Shown here piece by piece: positions 6,001 through 38,818 of a DNA stretch of 64,000 nucleotides (its first letter is position 1; each line of letters begins with the position of its first letter). Origin of the DNA: Planctomycetota bacterium (GTDB lineage Bacteria; Planctomycetota; UBA8742; UBA2392). A model generated the notes under the pieces. The model ran no database searches and was not told the origin of the DNA. It worked only from the letters and a program-made list of their open reading frames with translations. The position numbers were made by a program, and so were the translations under genes. The stretch is taken from NCBI GenBank assembly GCA_020848275.1, contig JADLAK010000077.1:7606-71605 (forward strand). Reading direction: 5' to 3'.

Positions 6001-6799
6001 CACGGCGGGCACTCTGCCTGCTGGCCGCCGCGGCGCGAGCTTGGTGTTTGACTCCGTTGCAGGCACGCCGCGCATGATCATGTACGGCGGCTGGCTGGGC
6101 ACGGCCAACTCGACCATCACCAACCAGGTCTGGCAGTTGTCGCTGGCGGCGGGTACGGGCACCTGGACAAACATCACCCCGGCGCCGGCGGGCGGACAGC
6201 CCGGCGGCCGCGCCAACCATGCCGCGGTCTTCGACGCCACGGGCAACCGCATGGTGATCTTCGGCGGCCAGACCTCGGCGGCATTTGTGAACACGGTCTA
6301 TGCGCTGAGCCTGGGCGGCAGCCCGGCCTGGTCGCTGCAGGCGACCAGCGGCACGGCGCCGAGCATCCGCATGGGCATGAGCTACAGCTTCCACCCGAGC
6401 ACGCGCCGGCTGGTGATCATGGGCGGCTACAACGGCAGCACGACGTTCTCGGACATGTTCTACCTGAACCTGGCGACCAACGCATGGTCGAGCCAGGGTG
6501 GCGCGATTCCGCCCAAGCGTTACTACAACAGCATGGTTTATGATGCGGCCAACGACCGCATGGTCATGTACGGCGGCTTCGACACCGCGGCGCTGAGCGA
6601 CCTGTGGAGCTTCAGCTTCGCGAGCAGCACCTGGACTCAGATTACGCCGACAGTGGCTCTGCCGCAGACGCGCTGGGCGCACGCGGCGATCTGGGATGTC
6701 GATGGCGCGCGCATGGTGGTGAGCGGCGGCTACGTCGACGGCGAAAACGCCTCGGTGCAGATCGATAACATGGCGCAGTTGTGGTTCTGGGGCGACTGA
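2..6799 (+). CDS. Giant surface/secreted protein, 5'-truncated: tandem Ig-like (ASH/choice-of-anchor D-like) repeats followed by many Kelch/galactose-oxidase-type repeats
   Basis: The frame is open from base 2. The motif SPFTFDVSGTG recurs every 375 bp up to 2714. From about 3870 there are Kelch-like repeats (R.GH/HSA.YD....RMIVFGG......NDVW). Stop is TGA at 6797-6799. Confidence 0.85.
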   Translation, partial: TSFTVAFDPTTAGAKTATVSFTHNGTNTASPFTFDVSGTGITPTVEVRETAVGGTLVANGAAAANGRAFGNRDISAGPSATLTVFVLNTGSNTMTLAAPTLGGADAGQFVLDTTGFSTSLAVGANTTFSLAFDPSTVGSKTATVSFAHNGTNTGSPFTFDVSGTGITPTVEVRETAVGGTLVANGAAAANGRAFGNRDISAGSSAALTIFVLNTGSNTITLGTPTIGGADAGQFVLNTGGFSGSVAAGGNTTFTVAFDPSTVGAKTATISFTHNGTNTASPFTFDVSGTGITPTVEVRETAVGGTLVANGAAAANGRAFGNRDISAGPTATLAIFVLNTGTNTITLAAPTLGGADAGQFVLDSSSFSTSVAAGANTSFTVAFDPTTVGAKTASVSFTHDATNTASPFTFDVSGTGITPTVEVRETAVGGTLVANGAAAANGRAFGSRDISAGPTATLTIFVLNTGTNTITLGTPILGGADAGQFVLDTSSFSASVAAGANTTFTVAFDPSTVGAKTATVSFTHNGTNTASPFTFDVSGTGITPTVEVRETAVGGTLVANGAAAANGRAFGNRDISAGPSATLTIFVLNTGSNTITLGTPTIGGADAGEFVLNTGGFSGSVAAGANTSFTVAFDPSTAGPKTATISFTHNGTNTASPFTFDVSGTGITPTVEVRETAVGGTLVSNGAAAANGRAFGNRDISAGASATLAIFVLNTGSNTVTLGTPALGGVDAGQFVINTGGFSGSVAAGANTSFTVAFDPSTVGAKTATVSFTHDGTNTASPFTFDVSGTGITPTVEVRETAVGGTLVANGAAAANGRAFGNQDISSGATATLTIFVLNTGSNTITLGTPALGGADAGQFVLNTGGFSGSVAAGANTTFTVAFDPSTTGLKAATVSFTHDGTNTASPFTFDLSGTGTTPLIEVREADAVTGVLISNGLAAAGTARDFGDQNVSGGATAALTIYINNTGTHTMTVAAPTLSAGDTGDFVLDTTGFSTSVAPGANTSFTVAFDPASTGGKAATVSFTHNATNDATPFDFEVVGNGTNPPVIDISGSAAFGSVDLGQSSAAHLITITNTGGTDLTVTAVALAGANPGDWSLSPVSPASFPGAAWTIAPAATATFNATFTPTAGGARSANIAVTSDTGGTPGTVTNFAITGTGVFPVALSAALISGDTGGPQVIRVTVTGTFNTISDLLLEYQGGSVGAGWSNSGVITRVSDSGATISGNLIEDLNAPTAGSTIDILWDAYATERHVTAANYVVRLTPVTGMGSGTSISVGPFTLTRDGGWAQHVEPGGNITGRFGHTTIYQTSGSADRMIVFGGKVGSTLINDVWAYDRGSFEPGWRQVRPTGTAPTIRQYHSAIYDSANNRMIVFSGKSGPTLYNDVWSLSLTPGSEAWTQLTPGGTAPAIRYSAMMGYDAARGRAIVYGGWGAVAYADVFALDLTPGAEAWSTITAGGTAPQARMGAAVALQPAPADRLVIYGGYTSSGASSSEIFRLSLAPGSETWASITAAGGAGGSTRYYTSHVYDPVRNALMMSSGYRGSTVLKDAWMLSLGAGSETWTALPEDGGASDGRVVGAAAYDSGRSEAMFFGGLGVAGFGVTGLVTLPSSGSPTWVLPATGATQAMPNGRWGAGMIYDAANSRTVIFGGKDSVNRYNDVWAVNPAAASPVWSKLATSGTAPTPRVYAQVVYDSNSQRMIVFGGQTASGGSVNDLWELDLSTLAWQQLTPAGGPPTARQSAAVCYDATPGAERLLMHGGNTNSGLNGESWVLDLSTRYSEAWTQLNPGAGPAARQGHGAVYNSVLQQFVIFMGSTGTRKDDVWAMDLSGGIGTESWIDITPAAGPPAPSARYLFGYASDAAGLTVFVQGGDAGSLMNDLWILDLSGFAAVWTPVIVSGGVAPLHRSVHSACYDDANNRLVIGMGLTLWPCADIWTILPFAGSPVWSEVHAASAPAAMVNGATCYDPVFKRMIAFGGIASGGFDSQLWQLDLTTPVATWSKLATAGTLPAGRRGASLVFDSVAGTPRMIMYGGWLGTANSTITNQVWQLSLAAGTGTWTNITPAPAGGQPGGRANHAAVFDATGNRMVIFGGQTSAAFVNTVYALSLGGSPAWSLQATSGTAPSIRMGMSYSFHPSTRRLVIMGGYNGSTTFSDMFYLNLATNAWSSQGGAIPPKRYYNSMVYDAANDRMVMYGGFDTAALSDLWSFSFASSTWTQITPTVALPQTRWAHAAIWDVDGARMVVSGGYVDGENASVQIDNMAQLWFWGD
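89..2713 (+). repeat. Seven complete intragenic 375-bp (125-aa) tandem repeats, plus a partial copy at the window edge and diverged copies after them
   Basis: The Ser codon of SPFTFD falls at 89, 464, 839, 1214, 1589, 1964, 2339 and 2714, an exact 375-bp period. Confidence 0.95.
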
Positions 6800-34657: not shown

Positions 34658-35023
34658 TTAATAGTCGACAGGCACTTCCTCGAACTTGGTCACGCCATGG
34701 CCGCTGTCCTTCAGGGCTTTCTCGACGGCTTCCTGGGTCATCTCACTGCGGCGCTTCATTGTGATAGTCGCAATTTTGCCGTCGATGGTCACGTCGGACA
34801 CGCCCGCGATGGTCTTGAGCAGGTCCTCGACTTTCTTGATCGTGTCGGCGTCTTTCATCTCGCCGGAAATCTCGATGCTGTAAACGCGCGACGGCTGCGG
34901 GCGGCAACAGGCGCAGATCAGGCCGGTCTGGGCTTCACCGCCGGTGACGGCCGGGAACGCCGAGAGGCTCTGGGTTCCAAGAATCGCAAAAGCAAACATT
35001 GCGGCGAAGAAGGTGTTGCGCAT
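34658..35023 (-). CDS. Exported HMA-fold protein lacking the canonical CxxC
   Basis: Signal peptide. YSIEISGEMKDADTIKKVEDLLKTIAGVSDV aligns to the HMA fold with MxCxxC replaced by MKDADT. A CACC motif precedes the domain. Confidence 0.7.
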   Translation of the reverse strand: MRNTFFAAMFAFAILGTQSLSAFPAVTGGEAQTGLICACCRPQPSRVYSIEISGEMKDADTIKKVEDLLKTIAGVSDVTIDGKIATITMKRRSEMTQEAVEKALKDSGHGVTKFEEVPVDY

Positions 35024-35312
35024 GACAATCCTTTCTTTGAGCATTTTCAGCTTGTTGTAGCGGATCTTGCTTGCGGCGAGCGTCGCATCTCTGCGTCAGC
35101 CTCACTTTGCGTGGCTTTCAGCCACGCGGTCGTTCGGCTTTCTTGACCTGATCGCTCGGCGCGGCGCAATATCGCGCTCCATCAATGCTTCAAAAGCTCT
35201 TTTCGGGGCGGGCTTTTCGGCGCTCTTGTCACGCTGGACTCGCGTGGCCCCTACTAGTTTGGCGGCAAAATTACCGCTGCAAACTAGACGCGCGTTGCGC
35301 CCGCCGGTTCCG

Positions 35313-35366: not shown

Positions 35367-36005
35367 TTAGTTGCTGGCCTTCTTGCCGCAGCCTTCGCAC
35401 TCCTTCTTCGGAGTTTCAGCGGAGGCTTCCTTCTTGGGCTCTTCCTTCTTTTCCTCGACCTTGACGACCTTGTCGCAGGAAGTCACGCCGAAGTCGGTAC
35501 CCTTGAGGGCCGTTTCGATGGCCGCCTTGTCGATGGTCTTGCCTTCGTTCATGGTGATGGTGACGGTGCCTTTTTCGACGTCCACGGCAACGTTGGCGAC
35601 GCCGTCGATCTTCTTGATCTTGGCCGCAACGCTCTTTCCGCAGCCGGCGCAGCACATCTCGGTGACAACAACGGTGTAGACGTCACCGGTCTTGGTTTCA
35701 GCTTTCACTTCCTTCTTGGCTTCGCAGCCCTTGCAGCCTGCACAATTCTTGCTGCCGCAGCCCTCACAGCCGCCAACGGTGCCTGCTTCCTTGGCGCCGG
35801 CGTCCTTGGTCTTGGTGCAGGTGCCGCCGCCACAACCGCCGCAGCCGCCACCACCGCACCCGCCGTCGTCCGCCTTGGTCGCGGCCTTCTTTTCGGTGCT
35901 TGCGCCGCAAGCGCGCTTACAGCCGCAACTGCCGGCAAACGCATCGCTGCCCATGAGCGCGGCGCCGGCAAACATCAGGAGAAACACAAAGAAAGTTGAG
36001 CGCAT
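35367..36005 (-). CDS. Exported HMA-domain protein with Cys/Gly-rich metallothionein-like N-terminal region
   Basis: Signal peptide, multiple CxC/CxxC clusters, YTVVVTEMCCAGCGKSVAAKIKKIDGVANV and C-terminal CEGC. Confidence 0.85.
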   Translation of the reverse strand: MRSTFFVFLLMFAGAALMGSDAFAGSCGCKRACGASTEKKAATKADDGGCGGGGCGGCGGGTCTKTKDAGAKEAGTVGGCEGCGSKNCAGCKGCEAKKEVKAETKTGDVYTVVVTEMCCAGCGKSVAAKIKKIDGVANVAVDVEKGTVTITMNEGKTIDKAAIETALKGTDFGVTSCDKVVKVEEKKEEPKKEASAETPKKECEGCGKKASN

Positions 36006-36188: not shown

Positions 36189-36629
36189 TCAACCCTTTGG
36201 TGGAGGTTGAGCAGCCTCTGGTTTTTCCTTTGTGGGCTCTTTCTTGGCCTCTTCCTTGACCTGCTCAAAGGACGTGACGCTGAGGCCGTCTTTGGAGTTC
36301 TTCACGGCTGTCTCTACGACCTCTTTGGTCAATGTCTTTCCGGGCTTGGTGACGATCACCGCGGTTTTGTCTTTCAATGTGACAACTACGCTGTTCACGC
36401 CATCCAGGCTGGTAAGGGCGGTCTTGGCCGCCTTGACTCACATACCTCAGGACATCCCGTCAATGATGACCTTGTAGGTTGTTGGCGCCGCCGCACCATC
36501 CGCTTTGGCAGTTTCAGGTTTGTCGGTCGCCTTTGGGTCACTTGCGGCGTCGCCGGCAAAAGCGACGTTAGCCCCGAGGAGAGCGATACCTAACGCGAGG
36601 ATAAAGATGAACTTCAGAAACGATGCCAT
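36189..36629 (-). CDS. Exported HMA-domain putative selenoprotein with two in-frame TGA (GMS-U-GM-U), 146 aa
   Basis: ORF-track fragments 36447-36629 and 36189-36398 are in one frame. Joined they read YKVIIDGMS*GM*VKAAKTALTSLDGVNSVVV, an HMA domain with TGA (36447-36449, 36438-36440) at both Cys positions. GGAGA RBS, signal peptide. Confidence 0.88.
36396..36434 (-). promoter_or_regulatory. Candidate bacterial SECIS hairpin pair
   Basis: mRNA after the UGAs: AAGGCGG-CCAAGA-CCGCC(C)UU, then CA-GCC-UGGAU-GGC-(G)UG. Confidence 0.55.
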
Positions 36630-36667: not shown

Positions 36668-37114
36668 CTACTTCACGCCGTGTGACGCCTTCAGCGCCGC
36701 CCAGTCCCCATTGCGATCTTCCTTGAGGCTGACCAGTCCGTATCCGAAGTCGTCTTCAATACTTTTCTTGAGTGACTCGTACTCAAGCTTCGCCTTTTCG
36801 TTACCGTGCAAATAGATGTTGAATTCCTCGATGACGGTGAAAGCGTCGGTTATCCCTTCCAGGGATAGCAGGGCGTCAACGACGCCCGTGGCTCAGCCGC
36901 CTCAGTCCATGCCGGTGATGCCCAGGATATAGATGACATCCTTGCTTGTCGGCTTAGGCGGTTTGGGCAGGGGTTCGGGCGTCGGCTCGGGCTCGGGTTT
37001 TTCGACGCCGCCGCCTCCTTTGCGGAACTCGATGGGCGTCAGGTCTTCAACGGTGATCTGGCAGCCCGCGATCAGGAACGCGATTGAAGCCAGCAGCGAC
37101 AAACCGTGCTTCAT
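36668..37114 (-). CDS. HMA-domain lipoprotein, putative selenoprotein with two in-frame TGA (GMD-U-GG-U), 148 aa
   Basis: Lipobox LIAGC and Pro-rich linker, then IYILGITGMD*GG*ATGVVDALLSLEGITDA. TGA at 36902-36904 and 36893-36895. The frame stays open to TAG 36668-36670. AAGGA RBS. Confidence 0.88.
36851..36887 (-). promoter_or_regulatory. Candidate bacterial SECIS hairpin pair
   Basis: Two perfect 7-bp stems right after the UGAs: GGGCGUC-GUU-GACGCCC and UAUCCCU-GGA-AGGGAUA. Confidence 0.65.
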
Positions 37115-37126
37115 GGCCGGATTCCT

Positions 37127-38002
37127 TTAAAAGACGTACGAGAACATAAGCATGGCTTCGCCCTCGTGCACGAACTGCTTGCCGAAGTGATAGTGGTAAA
37201 GCGGCAGCATCACGCCGAATTTCACCTCGAAATCGTTGTTGATGTTCATCTGGAAGCCAATGGCCGCCTCAACTTCATAAAAGCCGCTGTTTTCATCGCG
37301 ATCGCCGTCCATCTCGCCCTGGGCGCGCGCTTCAAAATCCATTTCAACGAGCAGGATCATGTCGAAGTCGCGGTAGTTCTTGATCTCCCACAGACGATGG
37401 CCATAGGCCATGTGGGTCTTGAACCCTGGCCCCTCGCCGGAATCGGAGCGGCGCGTCGACCCATAACCTGCCAGGTCTATCCAGAAATAGTGGCGTGTAG
37501 TGCTGGTTTGCGCGGTCAGGCCTCCCATGAACGTAAAGGTTTCGTCGCCAAGGGAAGGGCCGTCGACGCGTTTTTTTGCGGTAGGCAGTTCGGCCCGGAC
37601 AAACCAGCCCGCCTGCGAACTTCCGCCGGGGTATGGATGGTAAAGGAAGCGGTACTTGGCGCTGATCTCGGCGTTGCCCGGCCCGTAGTAACTTTCGCGA
37701 TCGTCTTTGGACCACTCAGATACGTAAGTGACAGGAAACTCAGCCTTGAGCGACCAGTCGCGCGAAATGCCCCAAGTAAAACCCGGCATGACCATGTGCT
37801 CAAATCGCCGCAGGTCACGCGGGTTTTCGTCGGGATTGTCGCCGCTGAAAAAGCGATAGGAGTACTCGAACATCTGCTCGACTTCGACCTCGAAGCCGTT
37901 GGTCCAGATCGTGCGCGGCGTCAGCCCAAACATGGTCTCGTGCGCATACGCGCCGCCCGCAAAGATCGCCAGCAAAAGCCCGATAATGCTCAGTTGTTTC
38001 AC
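37127..38002 (-). CDS. Putative outer-membrane beta-barrel ('transporter'-like) protein
   Basis: GTG start with AAGG RBS, signal peptide (AYA|HETMF), alternating amphipathic beta-strand pattern and C-terminal Phe (LMFSYVF). Confidence 0.7.
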   Translation of the reverse strand: MKQLSIIGLLLAIFAGGAYAHETMFGLTPRTIWTNGFEVEVEQMFEYSYRFFSGDNPDENPRDLRRFEHMVMPGFTWGISRDWSLKAEFPVTYVSEWSKDDRESYYGPGNAEISAKYRFLYHPYPGGSSQAGWFVRAELPTAKKRVDGPSLGDETFTFMGGLTAQTSTTRHYFWIDLAGYGSTRRSDSGEGPGFKTHMAYGHRLWEIKNYRDFDMILLVEMDFEARAQGEMDGDRDENSGFYEVEAAIGFQMNINNDFEVKFGVMLPLYHYHFGKQFVHEGEAMLMFSYVF

Positions 38003-38016
38003 GCGGCACCTTTTCC

Positions 38017-38478
38017 TTACTTCGACCTTGCACCGACCGTCTTGCGCACTCCCTTGGGGTGATCCTCGCAACACGACTTGCCCTCAAGGTCCTGAAGGAT
38101 ATTGCAGTCTTTGACGCTCGCCGCGCCGCCGGGGCAGTGCTCCACCAGTTCCTTCAAGTGATTGCGCATCTGGTGCAGCAGCGCAATCTTGCCCTCGATC
38201 TCGGCCAGCTTGCGTGCGGCCACTTCACTGATGTCGCCGCAGGTCGCGATGTTCGAGTCGCGCAGGAAAAGCAGTTCGTGGATTTCCTTGAGTGTGAAGC
38301 CGACGTCCTTGGAGCGCTGGATGAACCGCAGGCGCTCGGCGTCATGTTCGCTGTACAGGCGGTGGCCGCCCGAGGTGCGCTCGGGCTTGGGCAGCAAGCC
38401 TTCGCGCTCGTAGAAACGAACGGTTTCAATGTGGACTCCCGCGGCGGTGGCAAGCTTGCTGACGGTCATGGCGTTCAT
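38017..38478 (-). CDS. merR: MerR-family metal-responsive regulator (three-Cys MerR/ZntR/CadR type)
   Basis: HTH GVHIETVRFYEREGLL. Cys80, Cys115 and Cys125 match the MerR Cys82/117/126 pattern. Extra CCEDH tail. Confidence 0.88.
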   Translation of the reverse strand: MNAMTVSKLATAAGVHIETVRFYEREGLLPKPERTSGGHRLYSEHDAERLRFIQRSKDVGFTLKEIHELLFLRDSNIATCGDISEVAARKLAEIEGKIALLHQMRNHLKELVEHCPGGAASVKDCNILQDLEGKSCCEDHPKGVRKTVGARSK

Positions 38479-38496: not shown

Positions 38497-38527
38497 AGTC
38501 TATCTCCGTAGCTTACTACGGGTTCAA
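38497..38527 (-). promoter_or_regulatory. mer-type promoter/operator: -35 TTGAAC, 19-bp spacer containing dyad CCGTAG-TAAG-CTACGG, -10 TAGACT
   Basis: The minus strand reads TTGAAC CCGTAGTAAGCTACGGAGA TAGACT. Classical PmerT is TTGACT CCGTACATGAGTACGGAAG TAAGGT (same spacer length and dyad). Confidence 0.88.
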
Positions 38528-38742: not shown

Positions 38743-38818
38743 GGTCAGGTAGCTCAGTTGGTAGAGCAGCGCATTGAAAATGCGCGGGTCGCTGGTTCAA
38801 GTCCAGTCCTGACCACCA
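38743..38818 (+). tRNA. tRNA-Phe(GAA)
   Basis: Acceptor stem GGTCAGG/CCTGACC with ACCA end, D-arm AGCTCAGTTGGTAGAGC, anticodon arm GCGCA-TTGAAAA-TGCGC and T-loop GGTTCAAGTCC. 76 nt. Confidence 0.97.

Follow-up and report, generated by a model that had tools for sequence, protein, structure and literature searches.

Proteins with an HMA-type domain and UGA codons at both metal-ligand positions (U-x-x-U, U being selenocysteine, Sec) are already catalogued as NCBIfam family NF041115, 'UxxU_metal_bind, metal-binding (seleno)protein'. The family appears in the 2026 and 2022 selenoproteome reviews, in the latter as 'Putative mercuric reductase, UxxU', and both entries are computational predictions. 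The main text of the 2007 Olavius symbiont paper does not explicitly describe a UxxU protein; the attribution to it comes from the review tables. Other described relatives are the NF045683 group ('MerT/CopZ fusion-like heavy metal transport selenoprotein'), the exported mercury-binding protein MerP (TIGR02052) and the copper chaperones CopZ and Atx1, together with the N-terminal domains of CopA and ATP7B. Here we describe gene A, which lies in a stretch of 64,000 nucleotides (the window) from a member of the Planctomycetota (assembly GCA_020848275.1, contig JADLAK010000077.1, positions 7,606 to 71,605 of the forward strand). When two in-frame TGA codons are read through, gene A would encode a lipid-anchored HMA protein with a U-x-x-U site, within an operon that opens with a MerR-type regulator. 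The planctomycete family to which it belongs, and the operon, are undescribed.

Gene A resembles NF041115 in its HMA-type domain with UGA at both metal-ligand positions and in being known from computation only. Membership of that family was rejected on score: against a cut-off of 95 bits, gene A reaches 20.4, its neighbour gene B 43.7, a paralogue elsewhere in this genome (on contig C41) 50.8 and the best planctomycete relative 52.2. The NF041115 model spans 74 positions, whereas the products of genes A and B would be exported or lipid-anchored proteins of 146-148 amino acids with a tether and an extra C-terminal helix. The two genes also differ in lying in an operon with a MerR-type regulator and an outer-membrane barrel, in having no Cys orthologues and in having paralogues with U-x-x-x-U spacing. 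On sequence grounds, the planctomycete proteins would work like the NF041115 family, yet they are not members of it.

MerP shares with gene A an exported HMA domain, a MerR-type regulator, a mer-like operator and ligands located in the beta1-alpha1 loop and the helix that follows. With the TIGR02052 model, however, gene B reaches 29.5 bits (cut-off 92.55) and gene A has no match at E<=0.01. Moreover, the predicted ligands of gene A are Sec, its product would carry a lipid anchor and a long tether, there is no MerT or MerA to receive the metal, and an outer-membrane barrel stands in place of the inner-membrane transporter of mer. The CopZ and Atx1 chaperones and the CopA and ATP7B N-terminal domains are the best fold and profile matches to gene A, but they are cytoplasmic, use CxxC and have no lipid anchor, and the planctomycete scores fall under every CopZ equivalog cut-off. 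NF045683 proteins likewise combine a Sec-bearing HMA-type domain with metal handling; they are membrane-transporter fusions. The cut-off of their model is 375 bits; gene B reaches 28.6 bits and gene A gives no match at E<=0.01.

Gene A is read from the minus strand of the window, with the following coordinates.

36668..37114, minus strand: gene A, predicted di-Sec HMA lipoprotein, 148 amino acids when the TGAs are read through
36893..36904, minus strand: the UGA-GGC-GGC-UGA pair in gene A, predicted Sec71 at 36904-36902 and Sec74 at 36895-36893

The frame runs from an ATG at 37114 to a TAG stop at 36670-36668 and reads ...ILGITGMD-TGA-GGC-GGC-TGA-GCC-ACG.... The standard list of open reading frames (ORFs), made with translation table 11, has an ORF of only 70 amino acids here (36902..37114). 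An initial annotation of this DNA had remarked both on this early stop and on a read-through product of 148 amino acids ending at TAG, and reading of the frame bears out the two statements. It had also placed the TGAs at both cysteine positions of GMxCxxC, with which the frame and the predicted fold agree. The residues around the pair are DVIYILGITGMD-U-GG-U-ATGVVDALLSLEGITDAFTVIEEFNIYLHGNEK (GMD-U-GG-U-ATGVVDALL). Residues 1-18 form a signal peptide with the lipobox LIAGC (codon of Cys18 at 37063-37061), the peptide closing with a lipobox that matches [LVI][ASTVI][GAS]C (MKHGLSLLASIAFLIAGC); the lipobox cysteine is unchanged in all 17 aligned orthologues. A tether rich in Gly, Pro, Glu and Lys follows (residues 19-59), and residues 60-148 comprise the HMA domain and an additional C-terminal helix.

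Among frames open for 45 codons on either side, this 62% GC genome holds 151 TGA-x-x-TGA sites, nearly all of which are Arg/Pro/Ala-rich off-frame noise. Just three read as proteins, and every one of these is an HMA domain with TGAs at both metal-binding positions, so that the gene A pattern is not due to chance. TGA is an ordinary stop in the lineage, as seen in the ORF that ends at 6799 (with a TAG directly after it), in gene B and in 4 of 19 gene A orthologues; this agrees with the earlier statement that TGA is a normal stop here (for example at 6797-6799) and that the code has not changed globally.

A six-frame search across 60 relatives recovered orthologues of gene A, with identities of 34-57%, in 20 of the 22 other genomes of the same family (7 genera) and in a single genome from elsewhere in the order. 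Each of them holds exactly two in-frame TGAs, in the same alignment columns. They share a common design, with a lipobox cysteine, a Pro/Glu-rich tether, the motif LG-x-x-G-[MI]-D-U-G-[GQ]-U-[AT]-T-G-[VI]-x-D-A and a conserved C-terminal half. A DNA pattern that left each site free to be TGA, TGC or TGT was searched in 185,579 species genomes, where it hit 19 contigs, and in metagenome contigs, of which it hit 10. All of these are labelled Planctomycetota or unclassified, and 29 of 29 have TGA at both sites; agreement among 29 independent assemblies excludes sequencing error. No Cys orthologue of gene A is present among the 29 matches, although the pattern permitted TGC and TGT throughout the species genomes and metagenome contigs. 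Cysteine occurs at the Sec positions only in distant CxxC and UxxC paralogues and in distant secreted HMA proteins. The initial annotation had expected an alignment of homologues to show Cys/TGA pairs at both sites and had counted a lack of conservation downstream against its reading: the TGAs and the downstream conservation stand, and the cysteine partners are confined to these distant proteins.

The region 3' of the second TGA evolves as coding sequence. Substitutions at codon positions 1, 2 and 3 number 2761, 2384 and 4351, and synonymous codon differences amount to 1656 in frame versus 636 and 666 in the shifted frames (2.5 times). Amino-acid identity is 52% in frame versus 36-37% in the shifted frames. 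These patterns indicate that purifying selection maintains the read-through frame 3' of the TGAs. The conserved stretch ATGVVDALLSLEGITDAFTVIEEFNIY, directly after the TGAs, precedes every usable start in the window, the first start after the TGAs being a TTG at 36811. Given conserved coding sequence ahead of any alternative start, and given conservation of the TGAs, the locus is neither the product of sequencing error nor a pseudogene nor a pair of separate genes.

In protein collections the family is split. A word-indexed protein search with full-length gene A gave no match, because the database entries are truncated at the TGAs. In an exhaustive profile search of 1.84 billion representatives, the best single-domain matches are fragments of 55-83 amino acids that cover profile positions 1-75 or 84-150; for example, one (P0012) ends ...FVLGIDGMD and another (P0009) begins MDAFLSRSGIK.... 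To judge from these sequences, public protein collections contain the gene A family only as two halves. Among full-length proteins with Cys, the nearest are distantly related, secreted HMA proteins (LGIDGMSCPFCAYGVE...), which score about 50 bits.

The genome has the genes expected for Sec insertion: selB (305.9 bits), selA (536.4 bits) and selD (386.1 bits) all score over their curated cut-offs, and a tRNA-Sec detected by ARAGORN adjoins selA. Within the taxonomic family, 23 of 23 genomes carry selA; across the phylum, it is found in 52 of 61 sampled members. The use of Sec in Planctomycetes has been reported previously (PMC4807772). In this genome selD (contig C98:15986-16903, minus strand) itself appears to encode a selenoprotein, with one in-frame TGA (GAG-U-GCK) and a bulged hairpin, GAGC-G-ACCUG[GUC]CAGGU-GCUC, that begins 17 nt after its UGA.

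For Sec to be inserted in bacteria, a hairpin has to stand at a fixed spacing from the UGA. The UGAs of gene A are 9 nt apart, and two hairpins lie downstream of them.

36871..36887, minus strand: hairpin 1, candidate selenocysteine insertion sequence (SECIS), GGGCGUC-GUU-GACGCCC, 7-bp stem, 14 nt after UGA1 and 5 nt after UGA2
36851..36867, minus strand: hairpin 2, UAUCCCU-GGA-AGGGAUA, starting 25 nt after UGA2

Hairpin 1 (17 nt, GGGCGUC-NUN-GACGCCC) occurs at the same place in all orthologues, and in an alignment of 19 sequences 99.2% of its cells are paired, plus one G-U wobble. A compensatory change from G-C to A-U is seen in four sequences, in which Val is replaced by Ile and the partner codon shifts synonymously from GAC to GAU; the four-fold-degenerate third positions within the stem (ACG, GGC, GTC, GCC) are invariant. 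Hairpin 2 has 81% of its cells paired and three pairs altered on both sides. For the two-helix structure as a whole, 90% of cells are paired versus 32-56% when the partners are slid. Whole-segment folding energy 3' of the UGAs gave no separation of Sec from Cys genes in this GC-rich DNA, and a local-hairpin score was used instead. For a local hairpin 4-8 nt after the second codon in HMA genes of the lineage, the median is -9.9 kcal/mol in Sec-Sec genes versus -1.65 kcal/mol in CxxC paralogues; without family A the Sec-Sec median is -4.5 kcal/mol (p about 0.013, a value that is indicative only, as the sequences are related and non-independent). In the region of hairpin 2 the medians for Sec genes and CxxC paralogues are -6.9 and -2.4 kcal/mol.

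In the single-UGA genes of this genome (selD and the thioredoxin domain on contig C41) the stem begins 16-17 nt after the UGA. The 14-nt distance of hairpin 1 is close to this value and thus represents a SECIS-like placement for UGA1, whereas the hairpin is too near UGA2. Its pairing and position suggest that hairpin 1 probably acts as a SECIS for UGA decoding, and hairpin 2 is possibly a decoding element for UGA2. That each UGA has its own hairpin can be proposed only tentatively. Decoding of both UGAs as Sec is a very strongly indicated prediction.

The AlphaFold2 model of gene A, built on a 17-sequence alignment, has pLDDT >90 for residues 60-148 and disorder for residues 1-59. Strands are predicted at 60-67, 88-94, 99-104 and 126-133 and helices at 72-83, 112-123 and 138-144, which is the HMA beta-alpha-beta-beta-alpha-beta topology with one extra helix. 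The model places U71 in the beta1-alpha1 loop and has U74 within the opening turn of helix alpha1, which is the canonical CxxC geometry. Foldseek pairs the model with domains of ATP7B, CopA, Atx1 and CopZ (target TM 0.70-0.78), and a profile of family A aligns with CopZ (6ff2) across the whole domain at E=2.3e-5. The central proposal of the initial annotation, a di-selenocysteine UxxU site on a lipid-anchored HMA protein with a Pro-rich linker, is thus supported by the orthologues, the Sec machinery, the hairpin, the fold and the invariant lipobox cysteine.

The operon context of gene A comprises the following features.

38497..38527, minus strand: MerR-type promoter/operator, with -35 TTGAAC (38527-38522), dyad CCGTAG-TAAG-CTACGG (38521-38506), AGA and -10 TAGACT (38502-38497)
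38017..38478, minus strand: MerR-family heavy-metal-responsive regulator with Cys80, Cys115 and Cys125 (Pfam MerR_1 and MerR-DNA-bind)
37127..38002, minus strand: predicted outer-membrane beta-barrel partner, 291 amino acids, signal peptide, about 12 strands (AlphaFold2 and Foldseek)
36189..36629, minus strand: gene B, 146-amino-acid exported HMA protein, predicted GMS-U-GM-U (Pfam HMA 39.2 bits, above cut-off)
35367..36005, minus strand: HMA-C, 212-amino-acid exported Cys-rich HMA protein (HMA 35.1 bits), with an MCCAGC site and several CxxC/CGGC clusters
34658..35044, minus strand: HMA-D, 128-amino-acid exported HMA-like protein (HMA 18.1 bits, below cut-off)

The promoter, read by eye, has a 19-bp spacer and a dyad that abuts the -35 box. 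A scan for sigma-70 consensus promoters, which permits spacers of 16-18 nt only, found none here. The three nearest orthologous loci share the 19-bp-spacer promoter; in most of the rest, merR is preceded by a dyad of the CCGTA-N6-TACGG type. Cys80, Cys115 and Cys125 of the regulator are invariant in 15 of 15 orthologous operons; among NCBIfam models the protein scores 131.8 bits for MerR (TIGR02051, cut-off 150.85) and 128.8 bits for ZntR, both below cut-off. A tRNA-Phe (GAA) gene on the plus strand (38743-38818), opposite to the operon, lies roughly 215 bp from the promoter, on its upstream side.

In every orthologous locus the barrel gene immediately precedes gene A. Its product matched no Pfam or NCBIfam family, and its homologues form only three clusters among 5.8 billion proteins, all of them lacking a Pfam domain. 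The AlphaFold2 model is all-beta (pTM 0.73), and its best Foldseek matches are 12-stranded FapF and the COG4313 channel 4rl8 (TM 0.67-0.72 for the latter). The mature N-terminus reads AHETMFG, with the A-H invariant among orthologues.

Gene B, which was absent from the initial annotation, adjoins gene A downstream and reads GMS-TGA-GGT-ATG-TGA, with UGAs at 36449-36447 and 36440-36438, hairpins at 36432-36417 and 36409-36399 and an ordinary TGA stop at 36191-36189. Together the adjacent genes A and B hold four predicted Sec codons. The gene B product also has a cleavable signal peptide and a Lys/Glu-rich tail. HMA-C is followed by an intrinsic terminator (35346-35323); in addition to its MCCAGC site it has the Cys clusters CGC, CGGGGCGGCGGGTC, CEGC and CAGCKGC, and from its sequence it looks like a high-capacity thiol metal sink beside the Sec proteins. 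In HMA-D the CxxC site is replaced by SGEMKDADT, a CACC lies near the N-terminus and a strong terminator (34631-34602) follows; the gene is syntenic in the closest genera. The order of regulator, barrel, gene A and further HMA genes is kept in about 14 loci, across one uncultured family of Planctomycetota.

A canonical mer operon was considered and rejected, because MerA and MerT are absent. The regulator, too, falls below the MerR cut-off (131.8 versus 150.85 bits), with its three Cys and the mer-like operator nonetheless conserved. None of 25 lineage genomes has a MerA above cut-off (TIGR02053, 454.45 bits; best score 350 bits), and MerT (PF02411) has no match in any of 16 sampled genomes of the family, this genome included.

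Other Sec-bearing HMA forms occur in the lineage. Outside the window, this genome has a 234-amino-acid lipoprotein with three in-frame TGAs (contig C41:38573-39277, plus strand), in which an HMA domain reading GIT-U-GG-U (Pfam HMA 45.1 bits) is joined to a Thioredoxin_7 domain (29.1 bits against a cut-off of 27) with the redox motif HG-U-GA-C. Relatives of gene B in the same family (loci L031-L045) are exported HMA proteins with three residues between the Sec codons (GMTUGTGU, GMGUGGAU, GMTUPAGU). Beside CxxC, the lineage has U-x-x-x-U, U-x-x-C and U-x-x-x-C forms and also apparent two-domain proteins. In another genome (G014, contig C2), gene A stands in tandem with three further HMA genes having two TGAs each.

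These features can be assembled into a model. SelA, SelB, SelD and tRNA-Sec would decode both UGAs of gene A as selenocysteine, and the product would be exported and lipid-anchored through the predicted Cys18, on a flexible Pro-rich tether of about 40 residues. Its CopZ/MerP-type HMA domain would offer a two-coordinate site in which two selenolates (U-G-G-U) replace two thiolates. The mer-type operator and tri-Cys sensor would turn on a 12-stranded outer-membrane channel together with three HMA proteins, namely the di-Sec lipoprotein, its di-Sec neighbour (gene B) and the Cys-rich HMA-C. Within the cell envelope, and presumably beside the channel, the lipoprotein would capture a metal ion that is soft and thiophilic. 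The best guess for this metal would be Hg(II), with Cd, Cu(I), Ag(I), Au and Pb as other possibilities. Once captured, the metal would be held, handed to the soluble HMA proteins or passed out through the barrel, the direction being conjectural, and the outcome would be resistance without a mercuric reductase.

As a whole, the reading of gene A as an intact gene for a di-Sec metal-binding lipoprotein, within a metal-switched operon, has a high probability in our view. Binding of a soft metal in the envelope by the di-selenolate site is likely, and it is plausible, with somewhat better than even prospects, that the lipoprotein acts with the barrel in a MerR-switched defence. The identification of the metal as Hg(II) is tentative. 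The most elaborate version, a selenium-dependent envelope metal defence without MerA or MerT in which UxxU and UxxxU sites trap Hg(II) or another soft metal far tighter than thiols and in which two SECIS elements decode in tandem, is doubtful as a conjunction.

Several observations weigh against the favoured explanation. Without a Cys orthologue, the classic criterion of Sec/Cys pairs is satisfied only through distant paralogues. The Pfam HMA score of gene A (PF00403, 23.8 bits) is slightly below the gathering cut-off of 24.8. Hairpin 1 is just 5 nt from UGA2, and hairpin 2, at 25 nt, lies beyond the usual 16-17 nt. Moreover, hairpin 1 covers the codons of the conserved TGVxDA, so that its conservation is partly at the protein level; its 3-nt loop is unlike the E. 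coli fdhF type, and an Rfam scan of the region gave noise only. Finally, the regulator lies under the MerR equivalog cut-off and scores about as well for ZntR, which does not fix the metal.

The identity of the metal is where an alternative survives best. The metal could be Cu(I)/Ag(I) or Zn/Cd/Pb in place of Hg(II), with the lipoprotein as a CusF/CopZ-like envelope chaperone that supplies the outer-membrane channel in an efflux route. In both structure and sequence, the domain does match copper chaperones and Cu-ATPase domains best, the regulator scores are nearly equal for ZntR, CadR/PbrR and CueR, and MerA and MerT are absent. Against this, HMA sequence similarity is no predictor of metal specificity, and MerR proper is the nearest parallel both for the operator, with its -35 box abutting the CCGTAG-N4-CTACGG dyad and its 19-bp spacer, and for the pattern of three Cys. 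MerR is the top NCBIfam match, and the operator is compared with that of Tn501. A metal other than Hg(II) is a possibility to be kept in mind, of the doubtful kind.

It is unlikely that gene A encodes a genuine di-Sec protein whose UxxU motif is a redox-active diselenide/diselenol, as in an envelope oxidoreductase or a Se/S carrier, and not a pair of metal ligands. Most catalogued prokaryotic selenoproteins are redox proteins, the Prx-like family has UxxU forms (2026 and 2022 reviews), and the C41 paralogue of this genome links both chemistries by fusing a UxxU HMA domain to a thioredoxin-fold UxxC domain. However, the predicted fold of gene A is that of HMA and not of thioredoxin, the operon has no reductase partner, and it is driven by a tri-Cys MerR-type sensor and holds three more HMA proteins, one of them Cys-rich.

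An open frame alone would fit any reassignment of UGA, and the codons might be read as Trp, Cys or Gly through a lineage code change or near-cognate suppression; under selenium shortage the Sec pathway may itself insert Cys at UGA. Decoding as a standard residue in place of Sec is nevertheless very improbable. TGA terminates gene B, 4 of 19 gene A orthologues and other genes of the window, and every genome bearing gene A has a complete Sec system. Sense codons would be expected among 29 diverged copies and none is found, and the UGAs stand exactly at the CxxC ligand positions and are followed by a conserved hairpin.

The remaining alternative, that the TGAs are true stops arising from sequencing error, in a pseudogene or between two small genes (a 70-amino-acid lipopeptide and a separate C-terminal ORF), accords with the handling of the locus by gene callers, with database fragments ending ...GMD or beginning after the second TGA and with the unmatched full-length query, but is extremely improbable given that both TGAs persist in 29 assemblies, that selection in the read-through frame extends to ATGVVDALLSLEGITDAFTVIEEFNIY ahead of the TTG at 36811, that half an HMA domain would not be expected to fold and that a pseudogene would not retain exactly two TGAs at the ligand positions over 34-57% identity.

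The reading of gene A as a di-Sec lipoprotein gene has consequences for annotation and for selenium biology. Finders of selenoproteins that demand Cys homologues (the method of PMC1976440) would tend to overlook the gene A family, for which no Cys orthologue was found. With a model built for this family, dozens of planctomycete genomes could be repaired. To our knowledge, selenoproteins that are exported, carry a lipid anchor and bind metal through Sec are known only from predictions and have never been studied. The natural UxxU site with its two covarying hairpins would be a good substrate for asking how UGAs 9 nt apart both get decoded. In these planctomycetes, four predicted Sec codons in two adjacent genes, a metal sensor and an outer-membrane partner would provide a compact system in which to ask what selenolates give over thiolates in metal capture.

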